Positions 1,963 to 13,801 of a stretch of DNA of 15,022 nucleotides are shown here, piece by piece (position 1 is the stretch's first letter; every line of letters begins with the position of its first letter). The DNA comes from Thermoproteaceae archaeon (GTDB taxonomy: Archaea > Thermoproteota > Thermoprotei > Thermoproteales > Thermoproteaceae). The notes below the pieces were generated by a model. It was not told where the DNA came from. It worked only from the letters and a program-made list of their open reading frames with translations, and ran no database searches. The stretch covers positions 1 through 15,022 of the forward strand of contig JAJHRB010000039.1 of NCBI GenBank assembly GCA_020833025.1. Reading direction: 5' to 3'. A program made the translations under genes and the position numbers.

Positions 1963-2095
1963 CGAAGAACGGCGCTTCGGCTTTACCCAGTGCCGTGTTT
2001 GATGAACGTAGAGCGGGGTTTCAAGCCGGCCGCCGAGCCAACAAAAAGCCGGAGAGAAGCCCAAAAACTCGCAAGAGCCGGACACGCGGGCGGCC
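1963..2095 (+). promoter_or_regulatory. CRISPR leader (copy 1, probably decayed)
   Basis: Aligns without gaps to 10514-10646. Shared motifs sit at identical offsets from the repeat: CGAAGAACGGC (-133), ACCCAG.GCCG.GTT...TGAACGTA.AGCGGG (-111), GAGAAGC (-42), ACGCG.GCGGC (proximal). Confidence 0.7.
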
Positions 2096-2117
2096 GAATC
2101 TCAAGAAGGGTTGAAAC
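2096..2117 (+). CRISPR. Solitary CRISPR repeat GAATCTCAAGAAGGGTTGAAAC
   Basis: Identical to the repeat at 10716-10737 and preceded by a leader homolog. No second repeat is found downstream. Confidence 0.7.
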
Positions 2118-8626: not shown

Positions 8627-9691
8627 GTGGGCGGGCGCGCGCTGCGCCTCCGGGCGCGCTACGTGCTTGCCGGCGGGCTAGAGGTGATCGAGAACGGCGT
8701 TGTGGAGATAGACGACCACGGGGTGGTGGTCGGGGTGGGCAAACACACCGGCGGGACTGCAGCAGATCTGGGAAACGTCGTGCTGATGCCGCAGCTGGTC
8801 AACGGGCACGTGCACGTGCTCGACGCGGCGATGGCCGACGCGGACGGCATGTACATAGACGACCTCGTCGGGTGGCCCCACGGGGTCAAGTACCACGTCG
8901 TGCGCCGCCTAGTGTCCAGGCGGGGGCACCTGCGCCTGCTCGACGCGGTGGCGCGCAGGATGAGGAGGTACGGCGCAGGCTGCGCGCTCGTCTACGCCGA
9001 GTACGCCGCGCGCGACGTGGAGGAGGCGCTAAGGCGCCACGGAATCGAGGCGGTGGTGTTCCAGGAGGCCCACGGCGGCTTTCCCGACTACCCGAACGTG
9101 CAGGTCGCCTCGCCGCTCGACCACCCGCCCGAGTACCTGAGGCAGCTGAGGGCCAGGTACGCCCTCGTCTCTACTCACGTCTCGGAAACGCCGGAGTGCC
9201 ACGAGGAGGGGGATCTCGAGCTCGCGCTGAGGGTTCTCGATGCCGACGTTCTAGTGCACCTGACGTACATAACTCCCGAGGAGGCCCTGGAGATCCCGCG
9301 CGGTAAGGTCGTCGTGGTGAACCCCAGGGCTAACGCGTATCTCGCCGGCCGCATCGCGCCCGTGCCGCTCTTGCTGCACCTCAAGCCGCTCCTGGGCACG
9401 GACAACGTCTTCGTCAACGAGCCCGACCTCTGGTCGGAGATGAAGTTCATGCACGCCTACGCGGCTGCCGCCGGCTGGAATCTGGGCGAGCGCGAGGTTC
9501 TGGCAATGGCCACGGTCTGGAACTGGGAGATGGTGAAGTGCGCGCCTCCGATCGAGCCTGGCAACAGGCTGCGCGCGCTCGCCGTGGCCGCGCCGTACGC
9601 CGGCAGCAACGTGCTGAAGTACCTAGTGAGGCGGGCCACGCACGCCGACATAGTCGCGTTCATCGAGGGCAGCGAGATAATACCCGCCTAG
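8627..9691 (+). CDS. Metal-dependent amidohydrolase (SsnA/MTA-SAH deaminase-like)
   Basis: 'MPQLVNGHVHVLD' (HxH), 'THVSET', 'LVHLT' and 'LGTDN' metal ligands. Confidence 0.85.
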   Translation: MGGRALRLRARYVLAGGLEVIENGVVEIDDHGVVVGVGKHTGGTAADLGNVVLMPQLVNGHVHVLDAAMADADGMYIDDLVGWPHGVKYHVVRRLVSRRGHLRLLDAVARRMRRYGAGCALVYAEYAARDVEEALRRHGIEAVVFQEAHGGFPDYPNVQVASPLDHPPEYLRQLRARYALVSTHVSETPECHEEGDLELALRVLDADVLVHLTYITPEEALEIPRGKVVVVNPRANAYLAGRIAPVPLLLHLKPLLGTDNVFVNEPDLWSEMKFMHAYAAAAGWNLGEREVLAMATVWNWEMVKCAPPIEPGNRLRALAVAAPYAGSNVLKYLVRRATHADIVAFIEGSEIIPA

Positions 9692-9931
9692 ACCTCTCTC
9701 AGCCTGGGGCCGCCGCCTGCGCCCGTCAGGCTCGCGCCCGCACCGCCGCCCCTCCAGCTCGCCTGCACTAACGTCGCGCGGCTCGACGAGCCGCCGAAGG
9801 TGAGCTACGTGAGGAAGCACTACCTCGCGCTGAGAGAGAAATTCGGCGAGGGAGGTGGCCGCGGCACGACAGAAGAGGAGCTGAAGCTCCTGGAGGAAGT
9901 CATCACGTCGCTAGAGAGGGAGCTTGAATAG
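9692..9931 (+). pseudogene. Gene remnant or small ORF (…KVSYVRKHYLALREKFGEGG…EEELKLLEEVITSLERELE*)
   Basis: Open frame continuing the amidohydrolase frame past its TAG. The only start is GTG 9800 (43 aa). Ends in an amphipathic/coiled-coil segment with host-like codons. Confidence 0.3.
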
Positions 9932-10049
9932 GAAATGTTATAAATCTCCTTGATTTCATTAATCCAGTGCCAGTAATACAAAGACAGGTACGGCATGTTT
10001 CTCCGTCTCCCGATTGTAGGTCTCGGCGACGCTAAGTTTGCGTTAATAG

Positions 10050-10214
10050 CTCAGGAAGTTGGTCGAAGCCGCCGAGAGGCTCGCGAGGGCCAGGAAGGTT
10101 ATCGCAGTGGAGTTCGCGTCGAAAAATGCGGCGGAGCGCCTGAGGAAGGCCGCCGAGGAGGAGGGGATCTACCTGATCCTCGGCGGGGACTACGAGCGCC
10201 TGCCCCCGGCGTAG
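10050..10214 (+). pseudogene. C-terminal remnant, resembling the tail of archaeal coiled-coil/PD-(D/E)xK-like proteins
   Basis: LRKLVEAAERLARARKVIAVEFASKNAAERLRKAAEEEGIYLILGGDYERLPPA*, with strong coding-like codon usage and an in-frame TAG just upstream. The family resemblance is inference. Confidence 0.4.
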
Positions 10215-10353
10215 TCCAAAAGAGCTGGTAAGTGCGTTATAGACGCTGTATCAAGCAGCAGAAGACTGAGGACTAAGCGCGTTGTCAATAAGACAGCAAC
10301 TCATTACTTAAGGCCCGCGCGAGCGCAGAGCTTGGCTTACCATTGCCTTCGCC

Positions 10354-10375
10354 ATCTCAACCCCTCTTGAGATTA
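10354..10375 (-). CRISPR. Degenerate CRISPR repeat copy in inverted orientation
   Basis: Minus strand TAATCTCAAGAGGGGTTGAGAT matches the repeat at 18/22 positions. Confidence 0.5.
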
Positions 10376-10513
10376 TATTATACAGTAGAGAGAGGCCGGC
10401 GCGCCGGGAGCCTCTTGCCGCTCGCGCAAACGTGCCGAGCGCAGGTAAAGGCCAGCCGCCGAAGAACGGCGCGCCGAGACGCCGGGCCTCCCGGCGCTAT
10501 TCTCGCGGCGCGC

Positions 10514-10646
10514 CGAAGAACGGCATCCCGGCGCGACCCAGCGCCGCGTTAAGTGAACGTAAAGCGGGCCGGAAGGGCGAGCGCCGGGGGCGCAGAGAAC
10601 GGGCGAGAAGCTTAAAAGTGCCGGAGGGCGCGCGACGCGAGCGGCA
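10514..10646 (+). promoter_or_regulatory. CRISPR leader (copy 2) with BRE/TATA (GAGAAG-CTTAAAA, 10605-10617)
   Basis: Homologous to 1963-2095. TATA lies ~30-35 nt before the first repeat. The GCCGAAGAACGGC motif is duplicated at 10458-10470 and 10512-10524. Confidence 0.75.
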
Positions 10647-10737
10647 GAATCTCAAGGAGGGTTGAAACAGCGGGAAGCCCAGCCTGCGGTGCGCGTCGAT
10701 GAACTTGGCGGCGCAGAATCTCAAGAAGGGTTGAAAC
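10647..10737 (+). CRISPR. CRISPR mini-array: 2 repeats, 1 spacer (44-47 nt)
   Basis: GAATCTCAAGGAGGGTTGAAAC (10647-10668) and GAATCTCAAGAAGGGTTGAAAC (10716-10737). Both are preceded by GCA, so the repeat may be 25 nt. 3' GTTGAAAC is a typical 8-nt crRNA handle. Confidence 0.8.
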
Positions 10738-10747
10738 TAGACGGGAA

Positions 10748-11173
10748 TTACCAGTACTGCGGCCTCTCGCTGCGCCTGATCACGTCGGGTGGGTCGTCAA
10801 TAAGCTTCCACCTCCCCGATCCCGGCGCTATCAGCACTATGCCGAGATCCTCGGCGAGCTTGTCGCTGATCAGCACCTCCGTCTCCGTCGCCGAGATTAT
10901 GACGTCCGCGGTCCTGGGGCCGATCTCTCTGTCCCCGGCGAGCACCCACACCTCAACCGCGTCCCTCACGAAGAAGACTCTAATGGGGCCGCCGGCAGTC
11001 CCGACCTCAATGAGACTTGCGGTGGGGGGCGGCGGGTAGAGCGAGAGCTGCCTGGCAAGCGAGGTCGGCAGGAGGAGCTGCGGCGTCTCTGCCTCGAACC
11101 CGGTGTTGACCAGAGCTGAGCTCTCGACCTCCGCGGACTTAGACCTGACCCTGAGCCTCACCCTCACCGCCAT
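10748..11173 (-). CDS. Clan AA aspartic-protease-like protein with Asn at the catalytic position
   Basis: 'SALVNTGFEAETPQLLLP', 'GTAGG' and 'EVLISD.L.E.LGI'. Confidence 0.75.
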   Translation of the reverse strand: MAVRVRLRVRSKSAEVESSALVNTGFEAETPQLLLPTSLARQLSLYPPPPTASLIEVGTAGGPIRVFFVRDAVEVWVLAGDREIGPRTADVIISATETEVLISDKLAEDLGIVLIAPGSGRWKLIDDPPDVIRRSERPQYW

Positions 11174-11273
11174 GCCCGTGCCGGAGGGGATAGACGTGGC
11201 CTATCCTCCCCCTCGTCAGCTTGTATATGTGGCCTATCCTCGCCTTCTGCTGCGCCGCCTGGCCTGTCTCCAC
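11139..11273 (-). CDS. Small 44-aa ORF with internal repeat, upstream of and overlapping the protease-like gene
   Basis: METGQAAQQKARIGHIYKLTRGRIGHVYPLRHGHGGEGEAQGQV. GTG lies 28 nt from the minus-strand TTTATA (11296-11301). Confidence 0.35.
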   Translation of the reverse strand: METGQAAQQKARIGHIYKLTRGRIGHVYPLRHGHGGEGEAQGQV

Positions 11274-11371
11274 GATTTCTGGGACAGCGCCGCGGTATAA
11301 ATCAGTGGCGCCCGCCGGGCAGGGCGCCGCCCCTCAAGAGAGCGCTTTTTAAATTCCGGCCCGCATGAGGC

Positions 11372-11752
11372 GTGGAGTTTCTAAGGGAGCGAGCCCTCCA
11401 GTTTCTCGAAATGTCGAGGGCGGCGGCCGAGAGGGGCTTCTACGAGCTCGCCCTGTTTAACGCAGAGCAGGCGCTGCAGCTTTACGTCAAGTATTTGATT
11501 TACAGAAAGGTGGGCGACTACCCCAAGACTCACTCACTCCGGGACCTCCTGGAGAGGGCGCTGGAGCTGTACGGCGGTGCATGCGGCCTGGGGGAACTCT
11601 TAAGGCGCCGCTCCACCGCGCTGACGCTGCTGGAGCACGCCTACATAACCTCTCGCTACCTGCCGTTTAGGGCCAGGCGCGAGGACTACGAGACAGCGCG
11701 CGACACGCTGGAGGAGGCCGCGAGGGCCTTCTCATGTCTCGAGAGTTTATAG
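11372..11752 (+). CDS. HEPN domain protein (COG2250-like)
   Basis: 'A.F.AEQALQLYVK', 'PKTHSL..L' and 'LE.AYI.SRY' are typical of this HEPN class. TTTTTAAA TATA lies 25 nt upstream. Confidence 0.85.
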   Translation: MEFLRERALQFLEMSRAAAERGFYELALFNAEQALQLYVKYLIYRKVGDYPKTHSLRDLLERALELYGGACGLGELLRRRSTALTLLEHAYITSRYLPFRARREDYETARDTLEEAARAFSCLESL

Positions 11753-12111
11753 AACTGCTAAAGCGGCAGCGCGCCGCCAGGGAGATAGTTGTAAAGAACC
11801 TGAATCTCTACCTCTGCAGGATACTGCAGATTGCGAGAGAGCTGGACCCCTCTGCCGAGGTGTACCTCTTCGGCTCCTTCGCTAGAGGCGCGCCGAGACC
11901 CGACAGCGATGTCGACGTGCTCGTCATTTCCGACGCCACCGGGAGAGACTTGCTCAGCGCGGCCATGGCGGTGGACAGGATTACCGCGGAGCTCGGGGTG
12001 AGTGGAGTATTTGAGATACACGTGGCGACGCGGGAGCTGTTTGAGAGGTGGTACAGGAGATTCATAGATGTAATGGTACTGGCAAGGTGCGAGGCGCCAC
12101 CAAGGGGCTAG
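11734..12111 (+). CDS. Minimal nucleotidyltransferase (MNT)
   Basis: 'VYLFGSFARG...DSDVDVLVI' and 'FEIHV'. Overlaps the HEPN gene. Confidence 0.87.
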   Translation: MSREFIELLKRQRAAREIVVKNLNLYLCRILQIARELDPSAEVYLFGSFARGAPRPDSDVDVLVISDATGRDLLSAAMAVDRITAELGVSGVFEIHVATRELFERWYRRFIDVMVLARCEAPPRG

Positions 12112-12447
12112 GGGACGGGCTCCGCTGGCGCGCCCGGAGGGCAGTTAGGGATTGAAGGCGCCAGCCCTCCCCGCCAACTCTCTTCGCCAGCTCAATTATT
12201 TCGCCGCGGCGGCGAGCAGCGCCTCCACGCATGAAAGGCCTCTCCGGCAGTGCCCCCATGCAGACCTTACTCGAGGAACTTAAGCGCGAGCCCCGCCTCC
12301 AGCACGGCCCCCTCCAGCCCCAGCCTTATGTACTGAACCACGCCGCGCCACGGGGGCGCACACGCCGGCGCCACCTGGCGGGAGTGCCGCTGCGGATTTA
12401 AGCCCTCGTGCTCAAACCTCCCGCCTGGATCGCAGATGGTGGGACTC

Positions 12448-12855
12448 TCAGGGGCCTCTCGTCGCTTCTAGGATCTTCAGTGCGAGGCCTACCAGCTTCC
12501 TGTACTCCCGTCTCGCGAGTATCTGCGAGACTCTCGACACGTCGATCGAGACATACCCGTGCACCAGCACATTCCTGAAGCCCACGATCGCGCGGTAGAG
12601 CCTGAAGTCCTCCTCCGTGAGCATGCCCCTCCTTAGGAGCGCAATGCCGGCCCCGACGTAGCTGTGGCTCGGCTCGCCGAGAAGCGCCGCGGCCCTCTGC
12701 GCCATGTCTATCAGGGCCTGCGCCTGCATCTGGAGCGCGTGGAGGAATTTCAGCAGCTGGCCGAAGTCGTCAAGGTCAAACCCCCTCGAGACCTCCTGGT
12801 CGAGGAAGTCCGCCAGCTTCGCGACGAGCTCTGCCAGCGCCTTTACTTCCGCCAT
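12448..12855 (-). CDS. HEPN toxin, HepT/DUF86-like RNase
   Basis: Rx4H motif 'GFRNVLVHGY', including the Tyr that MNT partners AMPylate in characterized HepT systems. Confidence 0.87.
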   Translation of the reverse strand: MAEVKALAELVAKLADFLDQEVSRGFDLDDFGQLLKFLHALQMQAQALIDMAQRAAALLGEPSHSYVGAGIALLRRGMLTEEDFRLYRAIVGFRNVLVHGYVSIDVSRVSQILARREYRKLVGLALKILEATRGP

Positions 12856-13268
12856 CGCGCCATTAGGGTCTCGTGCAGCTGGAGCTTCCTGGCGTCTATC
12901 TCCCAGTCCTGGCAGACGTTAAAGAGGCGGAAGACGAGGTCCCAGTCGCCGACGTGGAGGGGAATCCCCCCGAGTGCCTCCAGGACCAGGGGACAGGGCG
13001 TCTCGGGCCCCACCTCGACTAGGTCTATGTAGTCCTCGCTCATGCCGAGCCAGAGCGCGAGCTCGCCCAGAAGCTCGGAGTAAGTGTCGAGGTCAACTGC
13101 GGGTATCGCTACGTCGAGGTCTCTTGCTGGAGCCCCGCTGGCCGCGGAGCCGAACAGGAACGCGAACTTGACGTAGCGGCTCCAGGGGAACTGCTTGAGC
13201 CGCTCAAGCGACACCCTGTAGCACCTGCCCACCAGAACTTCACGCGGGCTCACGCTAACCCTAATCAT
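12843..13268 (-). CDS. Minimal nucleotidyltransferase (MntA-like antitoxin)
   Basis: 'FAFLFGSAASGAPARDLDVAI' and 'IDLVEV'. Overlaps the HEPN start. ATG 13268 preferred, with TATAAA on the minus strand at 13296-13301. Confidence 0.83.
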   Translation of the reverse strand: MIRVSVSPREVLVGRCYRVSLERLKQFPWSRYVKFAFLFGSAASGAPARDLDVAIPAVDLDTYSELLGELALWLGMSEDYIDLVEVGPETPCPLVLEALGGIPLHVGDWDLVFRLFNVCQDWEIDARKLQLHETLMARWRK

Positions 13269-13801
13269 GGACGCGAGTGCGCCCCCGCGATTGTCTTTAT
13301 ATCTGTTGCCCGTGCTCCCGTACGCCGTTTGCACCTCCCCGCCAGAACTATAGATGCTGCCACAGCCGCGTGTTGCATGGACGCGCTCCTGACGCAGATT
13401 CAGAGGGGGGAACCTGGCTGGGCCAGAAGCCGCAGCGCGCGTCAGTCTCGCTATTGTGGACCTCGCCTCTCCCCACGCCCGCCACGCCAGGGCGGGAGCG
13501 CGCGTCAGGGCAAACCAGAGCGCGTCATGGAATCCCTGGAGTAGGGGTTCCTCCCAGGAGGTCTGCGGGCAGGGGACAGCACGAGACCGCCGCCTGTGCT
13601 CGACGCTCAGCCGAGGCTCAATAACGATGAGGGACCTAGGCCGTGGCGCACTCGTTGACGCGGCAAGGCGCGAGGTTCGCGGAGGAAGCTCGGCAAGTGA
13701 GCGGGGGCTCCAGCCCCTGAGCGCGGCGGGGAGCTGAAAGGGGGTGCCGCGCGCCCTTTCATGTCGGCGCGGGCTTTTTAAAATGCTTGTGATACCGGGT
13801 T

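Follow-up and report, generated by a model that had tools for sequence, protein, structure and literature searches.

A Probable Minimal Orphan CRISPR Array of Pyrobaculum with a Spacer Matching a Globulovirus-Like Gene

Anatomy of the locus

The DNA analysed here (the window) is the whole of a 15,022-bp contig, C112, from an archaeal metagenome-assembled genome (MAG) of 1.56 Mb in 126 contigs, which is 93.9% complete with 0% contamination and has a GC content of ∼64%; the organism is a Pyrobaculum. Among the genes on the contig are those for eIF2-gamma, Tyw1, PanD, TauE and an amidohydrolase. The array lies on the forward strand and consists of a leader of ∼190 nt (10455–10643), recognized by its homology to the leaders of arrays and solitary units sharing this repeat, a 25-nt first repeat (R1, GCAGAATCTCAAGGAGGGTTGAAAC; 10644–10668), a single 44-nt spacer (10669–10712) and a 25-nt terminal repeat (R2, GCAGAATCTCAAGAAGGGTTGAAAC; 10713–10737). 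The stop codon of a convergent 141-aa open reading frame (ORF; 10748–11173, reverse strand) is just 10 nt past R2. The first-pass annotation had proposed this same order of elements, ending 10 nt from a convergent stop, and this is confirmed in every detail; the spacer length, which the annotation left at 44–47 nt, is 44 nt, and becomes 47 nt when the first three repeat bases are assigned to the spacer.

R2 is identical to the repeat consensus, and R1 matches it at 24 of 25 positions, the sole difference being an A-to-G substitution at 10657; two near-identical direct repeats enclosing a unique 44-nt spacer are what is expected of a canonical array. The R1 variant recurs as a solitary repeat at C105:1688, and R2 is found exactly in the arrays on contigs C103 and C86 of the same genome. 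The last eight nucleotides of R1, GTTGAAAC, would by their sequence become the 5′ handle of a crRNA.

In a BlastN comparison, a stretch of 286 nt that takes in the leader and the repeats aligns with the C103 leader at 86% identity (E=2e-92), with leader identities of 82% to C89 and C50 and 78% to C86; the leaders of the Pyrobaculum sp. WP30 arrays are 65–68% identical. Alignment of these leaders reveals a BRE/TATA-like promoter block, GCGAGAAGCTTAAAAGTG, at 10603–10620 on the forward strand, within which the TATA-like element CTTAAAAG (10611–10618) is separated from R1 by 25 nt. The GCTTAAAAG core of this block is retained in 10 of the 11 aligned leaders of this genome, and the block resembles the conserved Pyrobaculum CRISPR promoter AAAAACTTAAAAA, a promoter-like element that is nearly invariant ahead of all 37 Pyrobaculum arrays studied by Bernick et al. 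(PMC3396285). The array thus has a leader with a conserved TATA block, homologous to the leaders of other arrays, as a canonical array does, and the block is a putative promoter. An Rfam scan of positions 9600–11300 identifies no family, and a scan for sigma-70 promoters and terminators, a bacterial model that is not relevant for an archaeon, gives nothing.

About 270 nt upstream of the array there is a degenerate, inverted copy of the repeat (18/22 matches; 10354–10375, reverse strand); by our own calculation a repeat match of this quality is expected by chance ∼0.1 times per whole genome. It adjoins an AT-rich TATAATA sequence and points away from the array (10354–10426, reverse strand), and is possibly a relic of a divergent, back-to-back unit. 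In an independent assembly from the European Nucleotide Archive (ENA), described below, a 23-nt tandem duplication lies beside it (L007, 4770–4830). To the other side, two HEPN/HepT and MNT nucleotidyltransferase pairs resembling type VII toxin-antitoxin systems adjoin the array (11372–13334). The intervening 141-aa ORF is a member of a family that is conserved in Thermoproteota and faintly resembles clan-AA aspartic proteases, and is not a toxin-antitoxin gene.

Repeat family, cas genes and independent assemblies

The 22-nt core of R2 is identical in the repeats of Pyrobaculum sp. WP30, for which a complete genome is available, and the core also occurs in a Pyrobaculum MAG and in Thermoproteus sp. 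CP80, which hosts the globulovirus TSPV1. In WP30 the same repeat builds four long ordinary arrays, and the repeat is therefore shared with multi-spacer arrays of both the genome and the genus, as in canonical arrays. In the terms of Bernick et al. (PMC3396285), its 5′ half is family-I-like (GAAT-CTC-AAGAA), and its 3′ end, GTTGAAAC, is a handle belonging to repeats associated with type III systems.

The small and orphan arrays of Pyrobaculum and Thermoproteus described by Bernick et al. in 2012 (PMC3396285) share several features with this one: a crenarchaeal repeat of 25 nt built as GAAT-CTC-AAGAA-...-GTTGAAAC, a conserved leader promoter, (A/G)CTTAAAAG, immediately before the first repeat, and a location away from the cas genes, with cas6 and the effectors acting in trans. 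The array described here differs in having only one spacer, in a repeat that combines a family-I-like 5′ half with the type-III-associated handle, and in protospacers that show TTC rather than the CCN of this genome's family-I array (see below).

The locus had been described as lacking cas genes, and while this holds for the 15-kb contig, where a Pfam scan of 20 ORFs finds no cas family, it does not hold for the genome. Contig C46 encodes Cas6 (detected by PF10040, but missed by PF01881, Cas6_C), a full type III-B (Cmr) cassette composed of Cmr2/Cas10, Cmr3, Cmr5 and three RAMP proteins, and also Csx1, a Cas_APE2256 protein and a Cas3 HD protein. The type I-A genes csa3 and csa2/cas7 are on C106, and an adaptation module of Csa1, Cas1 and Cas4 is on C118. 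The genome can thus supply, in trans, processing functions, effectors of both type III-B and type I-A, and an adaptation module, in agreement with the earlier suggestion that the array acts in defence from a distance. Two identical repeats of the array's own family (family A, below) bracket, in direct orientation, the cmr cassette together with csx1 and the Cas_APE2256 gene (C46:16584 and C46:28623; L024); the first has a leader, and the second is ∼270 nt downstream of cas6.

An array with one spacer could arise trivially if a longer, population-variable array had been collapsed by the metagenome assembler, and some features of the MAG invite this explanation: it is broken into 126 contigs, many of its arrays look as if reduced to a single repeat, and in the C103 array the three spacers nearest the leader are copies of one sequence (C103:1084–1233, L028), which may mean that a repeat-spacer unit was duplicated in tandem or that the assembly contains a loop. 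We find, however, the identical order of trailer, R2, spacer, R1 and leader in two further public assemblies, both located via the neighbouring 141-aa protein. One is a MEGAHIT k141 contig (ENA ERZ27247216, k141_99217), whose 23-nt tandem duplication near the array marks it as an assembly different from that of the window. The other is from Logan run SRR10916987, assembled at k=31, a word length greater than the 25-nt repeat, and its contig runs unbranched from the trailer through R2, spacer and R1 to the leader. The leader and single-repeat unit on C13 likewise recurs in two other assemblies, one from ENA and one from a second Logan run, and an array of 63 repeats was assembled on C47 of the same MAG. 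Because the array is identical in independent assemblies, the C13 unit is reproduced and the C47 array is resolved, array collapse is very unlikely, to the point that we regard it as negligible, and the one-spacer and zero-spacer leader-repeat units of this MAG are real rather than artefacts of assembly.

The spacer and its protospacer

Scanning of metagenome contigs with a codon-degenerate pattern of the spacer yielded two hits, OFEJ01005189.1 (2,814 bp) and Ga0080005_120057 (2,327 bp), and the spacer matches both perfectly (44/44; L034, positions 477–520, and L035, positions 1704–1747). The two contigs are 98% identical to each other, their protospacers have no flanking repeats, and searches against the host genome at the DNA and translated levels find nothing in common beyond the spacer. 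A 405-aa ORF contains the protospacer, close to its 5′ end. Reverse-complemented, the spacer gives AAKFIDAHRRLGFP, and the first-pass annotation had proposed that this reads as coding sequence; exactly that frame is used in the target gene, where the protospacer region reads …CAAKFIDAHRRLGFPLKYDG…, and the match extends over all 44 positions. The direction of transcription is set by the leader, and a crRNA made in that direction would be complementary to the sense mRNA.

The 405-aa product belongs to no Pfam or PHROG family and an exact-protein look-up finds no record of it, but a tblastn search of 50,697 phage records matches only the Globuloviridae: Thermoproteus spherical piliferous virus 1 (TSPV1; E=1e-28), Thermoproteus tenax spherical virus 1 (TTSV1; E=7e-21) and Pyrobaculum spherical virus (PSV; E=1e-6). 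All three matches are within the leftmost 2.3 kb of the viral genome, and in TSPV1 and TTSV1 the matched gene is the first annotated, GP1/ORF1. There is a full-length relative (P0002, 594 aa, 84% identical), and BlastP relates it to TSPV1 GP1 (E=4e-34) and TTSV1 ORF1 (E=1e-28), with a Walker-A-like GPMR(E/S)GKT motif within the alignment. P0002 is encoded on a 10.9-kb contig (L038) of almost only ORFans, which carries a copy of the protospacer with nine mismatches and the same flanks. By tblastx this contig shares just one gene, the GP1-like one, with TSPV1 and TTSV1, and one of its genes, primase-large-subunit-like, shows 78% identity to a gene of the host; for these reasons 'globulovirus-like' is the best name for the element. 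Strictly, the target 'virus' is a mobile-element-like contig with one globulovirus gene, and the target contigs themselves are short (2.3–2.8 kb).

Several further searches had negative outcomes. Matches to the spacer in IMG/VR had been suggested as a check, but among the viral contigs of that database there are none (0 hits), either with the exact spacer or its codon-degenerate version, and the target protein searched in IMG/VR gives nothing. Neither the target contig nor the C89 array matches any of the 50,697 phage records at the DNA level. The other spacers of this genome and those of WP30, CP80 and a DAITPC MAG show no further significant matches to the target contigs, TSPV1 or TTSV1. Through the array a Pyrobaculum host is linked to an uncultivated globulovirus-like element, represented by OFEJ01005189.1, Ga0080005_120057 and the 10.9-kb relative.

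Read on the strand that has the spacer sequence, the three bases before the protospacer are TTC. The same trinucleotide precedes the targets of a C89 spacer on C79 and of a C103 spacer on C106, and TTT precedes the target of a C89 spacer on C6, so that the proposed TTC protospacer-adjacent motif (PAM) is based on four protospacers, three of which are on contigs binned in the same MAG. In the family-I array on C47 CCN lies ahead of two of three targets, suggesting that the GAATCTCAAGAAGGGTTGAAA(C/G) repeat family uses a TTC PAM as opposed to the CCN of the family-I array in the same genome. The TTC argues for spacer acquisition by normal PAM-selecting machinery and for possible DNA targeting. 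The 3′ flank of the target RNA, GAAGUACG, can form only two Watson-Crick pairs and one G-U pair with the eight positions of the handle GUUGAAAC, and because it barely pairs it would be read as non-self in type III targeting. A spacer of mobile-element origin, with a protospacer and a PAM, is what a canonical array contains, and the supposition that this might be something more than a routine short array gives way before a protospacer that agrees with the spacer at 44 of 44 positions and lies in a GP1-like gene of Globuloviridae type.

Array and target agree over 49 nt, more than the spacer itself (window positions 10668 and 10713–10716 versus L034, 473–521), with an overrun of one nucleotide into R1 (a C, the last PAM base) and four into R2 (GCAG). 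Of the three bases that lie 3′ of each of the four protospacers, 8 of 12 equal the first three bases of the repeat (G-Y-A). The overrun may reflect chance, or may be a hint of a 3′ motif or of microhomology at integration.

Some of the other matches are to sequences within the MAG itself. Spacers of the C47 and C89 arrays match small contigs at 43/43 (C16), 42/43 (C94) and 93–97% identity (C6 and C79), and these four contigs may be proviruses or mobile elements that were binned together with the host. The C103 array ends in a spacer that fits the type I-A cas7/csa2 gene (C106:1281–1329; L006) at 50 of 51 positions, with a TTC PAM and with the guide antisense; the array may target a cas gene of its own genome, or else C106 is from another strain or a mobile element that was binned in.

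Given a spacer aimed at a virus-like element, one can ask whether the array itself rides on an integrated mobile element and acts in conflicts between elements, as do the virus-borne mini-arrays of the Sulfolobales. The site is not conserved in WP30: comparison of synteny shows that the 9.7–13.4 kb segment of the window, with small ORFs, the array and the two HEPN/MNT pairs, is absent beside the WP30 amidohydrolase gene. What the locus has in common with virus-borne mini-CRISPR arrays (Medvedeva et al. 2019, PMC6858448) and the solitary repeats of viruses (Racrs, PMC10651486) is a content of one or two spacers, a lack of adjacent cas genes and a spacer against a crenarchaeal virus. The array described here, however, is in a host chromosomal context and has a host-type leader, a paralogue of the other array leaders of the genome; the flanking genes are housekeeping genes, the same arrangement recurs in all three assemblies, and a Pfam scan of 20 ORFs on the contig reveals no integrase, capsid or other viral or plasmid hallmark. 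The array does not reside in a viral, proviral or plasmid genome but among host housekeeping and HEPN/MNT genes, the analogy with viral mini-arrays fails, and carriage on a mobile element has in our estimation a vanishingly small chance of being correct.

Function of the array and the solitary leader-repeat units

We consider it very probable that the locus is a genuine minimal orphan Pyrobaculum CRISPR array, and that its spacer is an immune memory of a Globuloviridae-like virus or mobile element. In the mechanism that we envisage, the conserved leader promoter would transcribe the repeat-spacer-repeat unit, and Cas6 encoded on another contig would cut each repeat 8 nt before its 3′ end to release a crRNA composed of the handle GUUGAAAC and the 44-nt guide. 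This crRNA would be loaded in trans into the type III-B Cmr complex, or perhaps into a type I-A Cascade; loading into Cmr is the most plausible because the handle is of the type III kind, the C46 cmr cassette has family-A repeats on both sides and the guide is antisense to mRNA. The guide would then pair with the sense transcript of the viral GP1-like gene, and since handle and target-RNA flank do not pair, Cmr could cleave this mRNA and activate signalling through Cas10/Csx1. With TTC lying 5′ of the protospacer, PAM-dependent targeting of DNA would be possible as well. Pyrobaculum arrays of size 2–3 are transcribed and processed, and yield abundant crRNAs (Bernick et al., PMC3396285), which makes expression of the present array plausible; a point against this reading is the one substitution in R1, which might affect Cas6.

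The array is not the only unit of its kind. The genome contains ∼20–25 units consisting of a promoter and a single repeat, all spacerless and falling into two families. Units of family A have the ∼190-nt leader of the array described here, and the solitary members are at C5:12038, C13:7807, C17:3246, C46:16584, C50:27743 and C105:1688, with a further one in the window. The last of these is the solitary repeat that had been noted earlier on the same contig, a perfect repeat at 2093–2117 preceded by a degenerate leader (the unit spanning 1963–2117, forward strand) that is 69% identical and in which the TATA element has become CCCAAAAAC. Family B, whose leader is homologous to that of the 63-repeat C47 array, has solitary members at C9:24001, C10:4996, C11:1628 (the same as C27:7973), C18:24471, C44:2169, C66:15864, C89:18986 and C52:2312; the family-B repeat, GAATCTCAAAAGAAGGATTGAAAG, is present in no array of this genome, and a search of 17 other Pyrobaculum species genomes did not find it. 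These numerous units are an unusual feature of the genome, separate from the present array.

The smallest unit known to take up spacers is a leader with a single repeat (Yosef 2012, as cited in PMC3396285; Wei et al. 2015, PMC4330368). The solitary units correspond to it, and the present array is one step further on. The units in those studies are laboratory constructs in bacteria, whereas those described here are natural and numerous, and are putative substrates for adaptation.

The abundance of solitary units, and the small number of spacer-bearing arrays, also raise the possibility that the locus is a relic, one of many decaying leader-repeat remnants, in which a longer array has been reduced to one spacer and is now neither expressed nor used. 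The neighbouring unit at 1963–2117 has indeed lost its TATA box, the mutation in the array is in the leader-proximal R1 while the terminal R2 is intact, and newer spacers are absent in all three assemblies. Weighing on the other side are an intact promoter block, a spacer that still matches an extant element perfectly, the presence of genes for Cas6 and effectors, the abundant crRNAs of other Pyrobaculum arrays of size 2–3 (PMC3396285), and the pattern of conservation, with mean pairwise identities of 93% among repeats and 66% among leaders. That repeats are kept so much better than leaders argues for constraint or gene conversion and not for free decay, and we think it unlikely that the array is a relic.

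Type III crRNAs need no downstream repeat for trimming of their 3′ ends. The ruler-type crRNA ends reported in Pyrobaculum (PMC3396285) are consistent with this, and it gives some substance to the idea of a regulatory, crRNA-like guide, acting either through a partial target in the host, as CreA/CreR does, or through an RNA of R2 and its trailer that would direct Cmr to the 3′ end of the 141-aa gene. Only 10 nt separate R2 from the convergent stop, so that the handle followed by sequence from 10738 onwards is antisense to the 3′ end of the 141-aa mRNA, and several solitary repeats elsewhere in the genome similarly abut or overlap gene ends. The same geometry arises, however, for any array beside a convergent gene, and the orientation of the solitary units, ∼15 convergent versus 8 co-directional on rough gene calls, shows a bias that is not significant.

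Nor does the host provide a persuasive target. When the whole host genome is searched with the spacer, as had been recommended, the best match is 17/18 in mid-spacer (spacer positions 14–31; E=0.15), which is at chance level, and there is none at the seed end; the perfect target with a PAM is foreign. CreA/CreR and other crlRNAs (Shmakov et al. 2023, bioRxiv 10.1101/2023.03.03.530964) share with this array the format of two repeats, one spacer and a dedicated promoter, but here the locus is neither in nor next to a cas operon, its neighbours being the clan-AA-protease-like ORF and the HEPN/MNT genes, the repeats show no degeneracy (R2 is the consensus itself and R1 departs from it by one substitution), and the spacer, instead of partly matching the promoter of a cas or toxin gene, matches foreign DNA perfectly over its full length. 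The analogy with CreA/CreR drawn in the first-pass annotation is not borne out, and a regulatory role seems quite improbable.

A broader explanation would make the array one face of a lineage-specific expansion of promoter-plus-repeat modules, whose transcripts, joining the handle to flanking host sequence, would serve as type III-B antisense guides, or which would act as 'seed' sites for adaptation. If this were true, the product of Cas6 cleavage at R2, together with the trailer, would here be antisense to the 3′ end of the 141-aa gene. We regard such an expansion as decidedly unlikely to account for the array. As a probable minimal orphan array holding an immune memory, the array itself matters little, behaving as textbook CRISPR memory; the solitary units, being real, raise the more interesting question of why the lineage keeps so many. 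For the gene next to the C5 unit an exact-protein look-up finds no record. Several of the solitary units abut or overlap the start codons or the stop codons of neighbouring genes.
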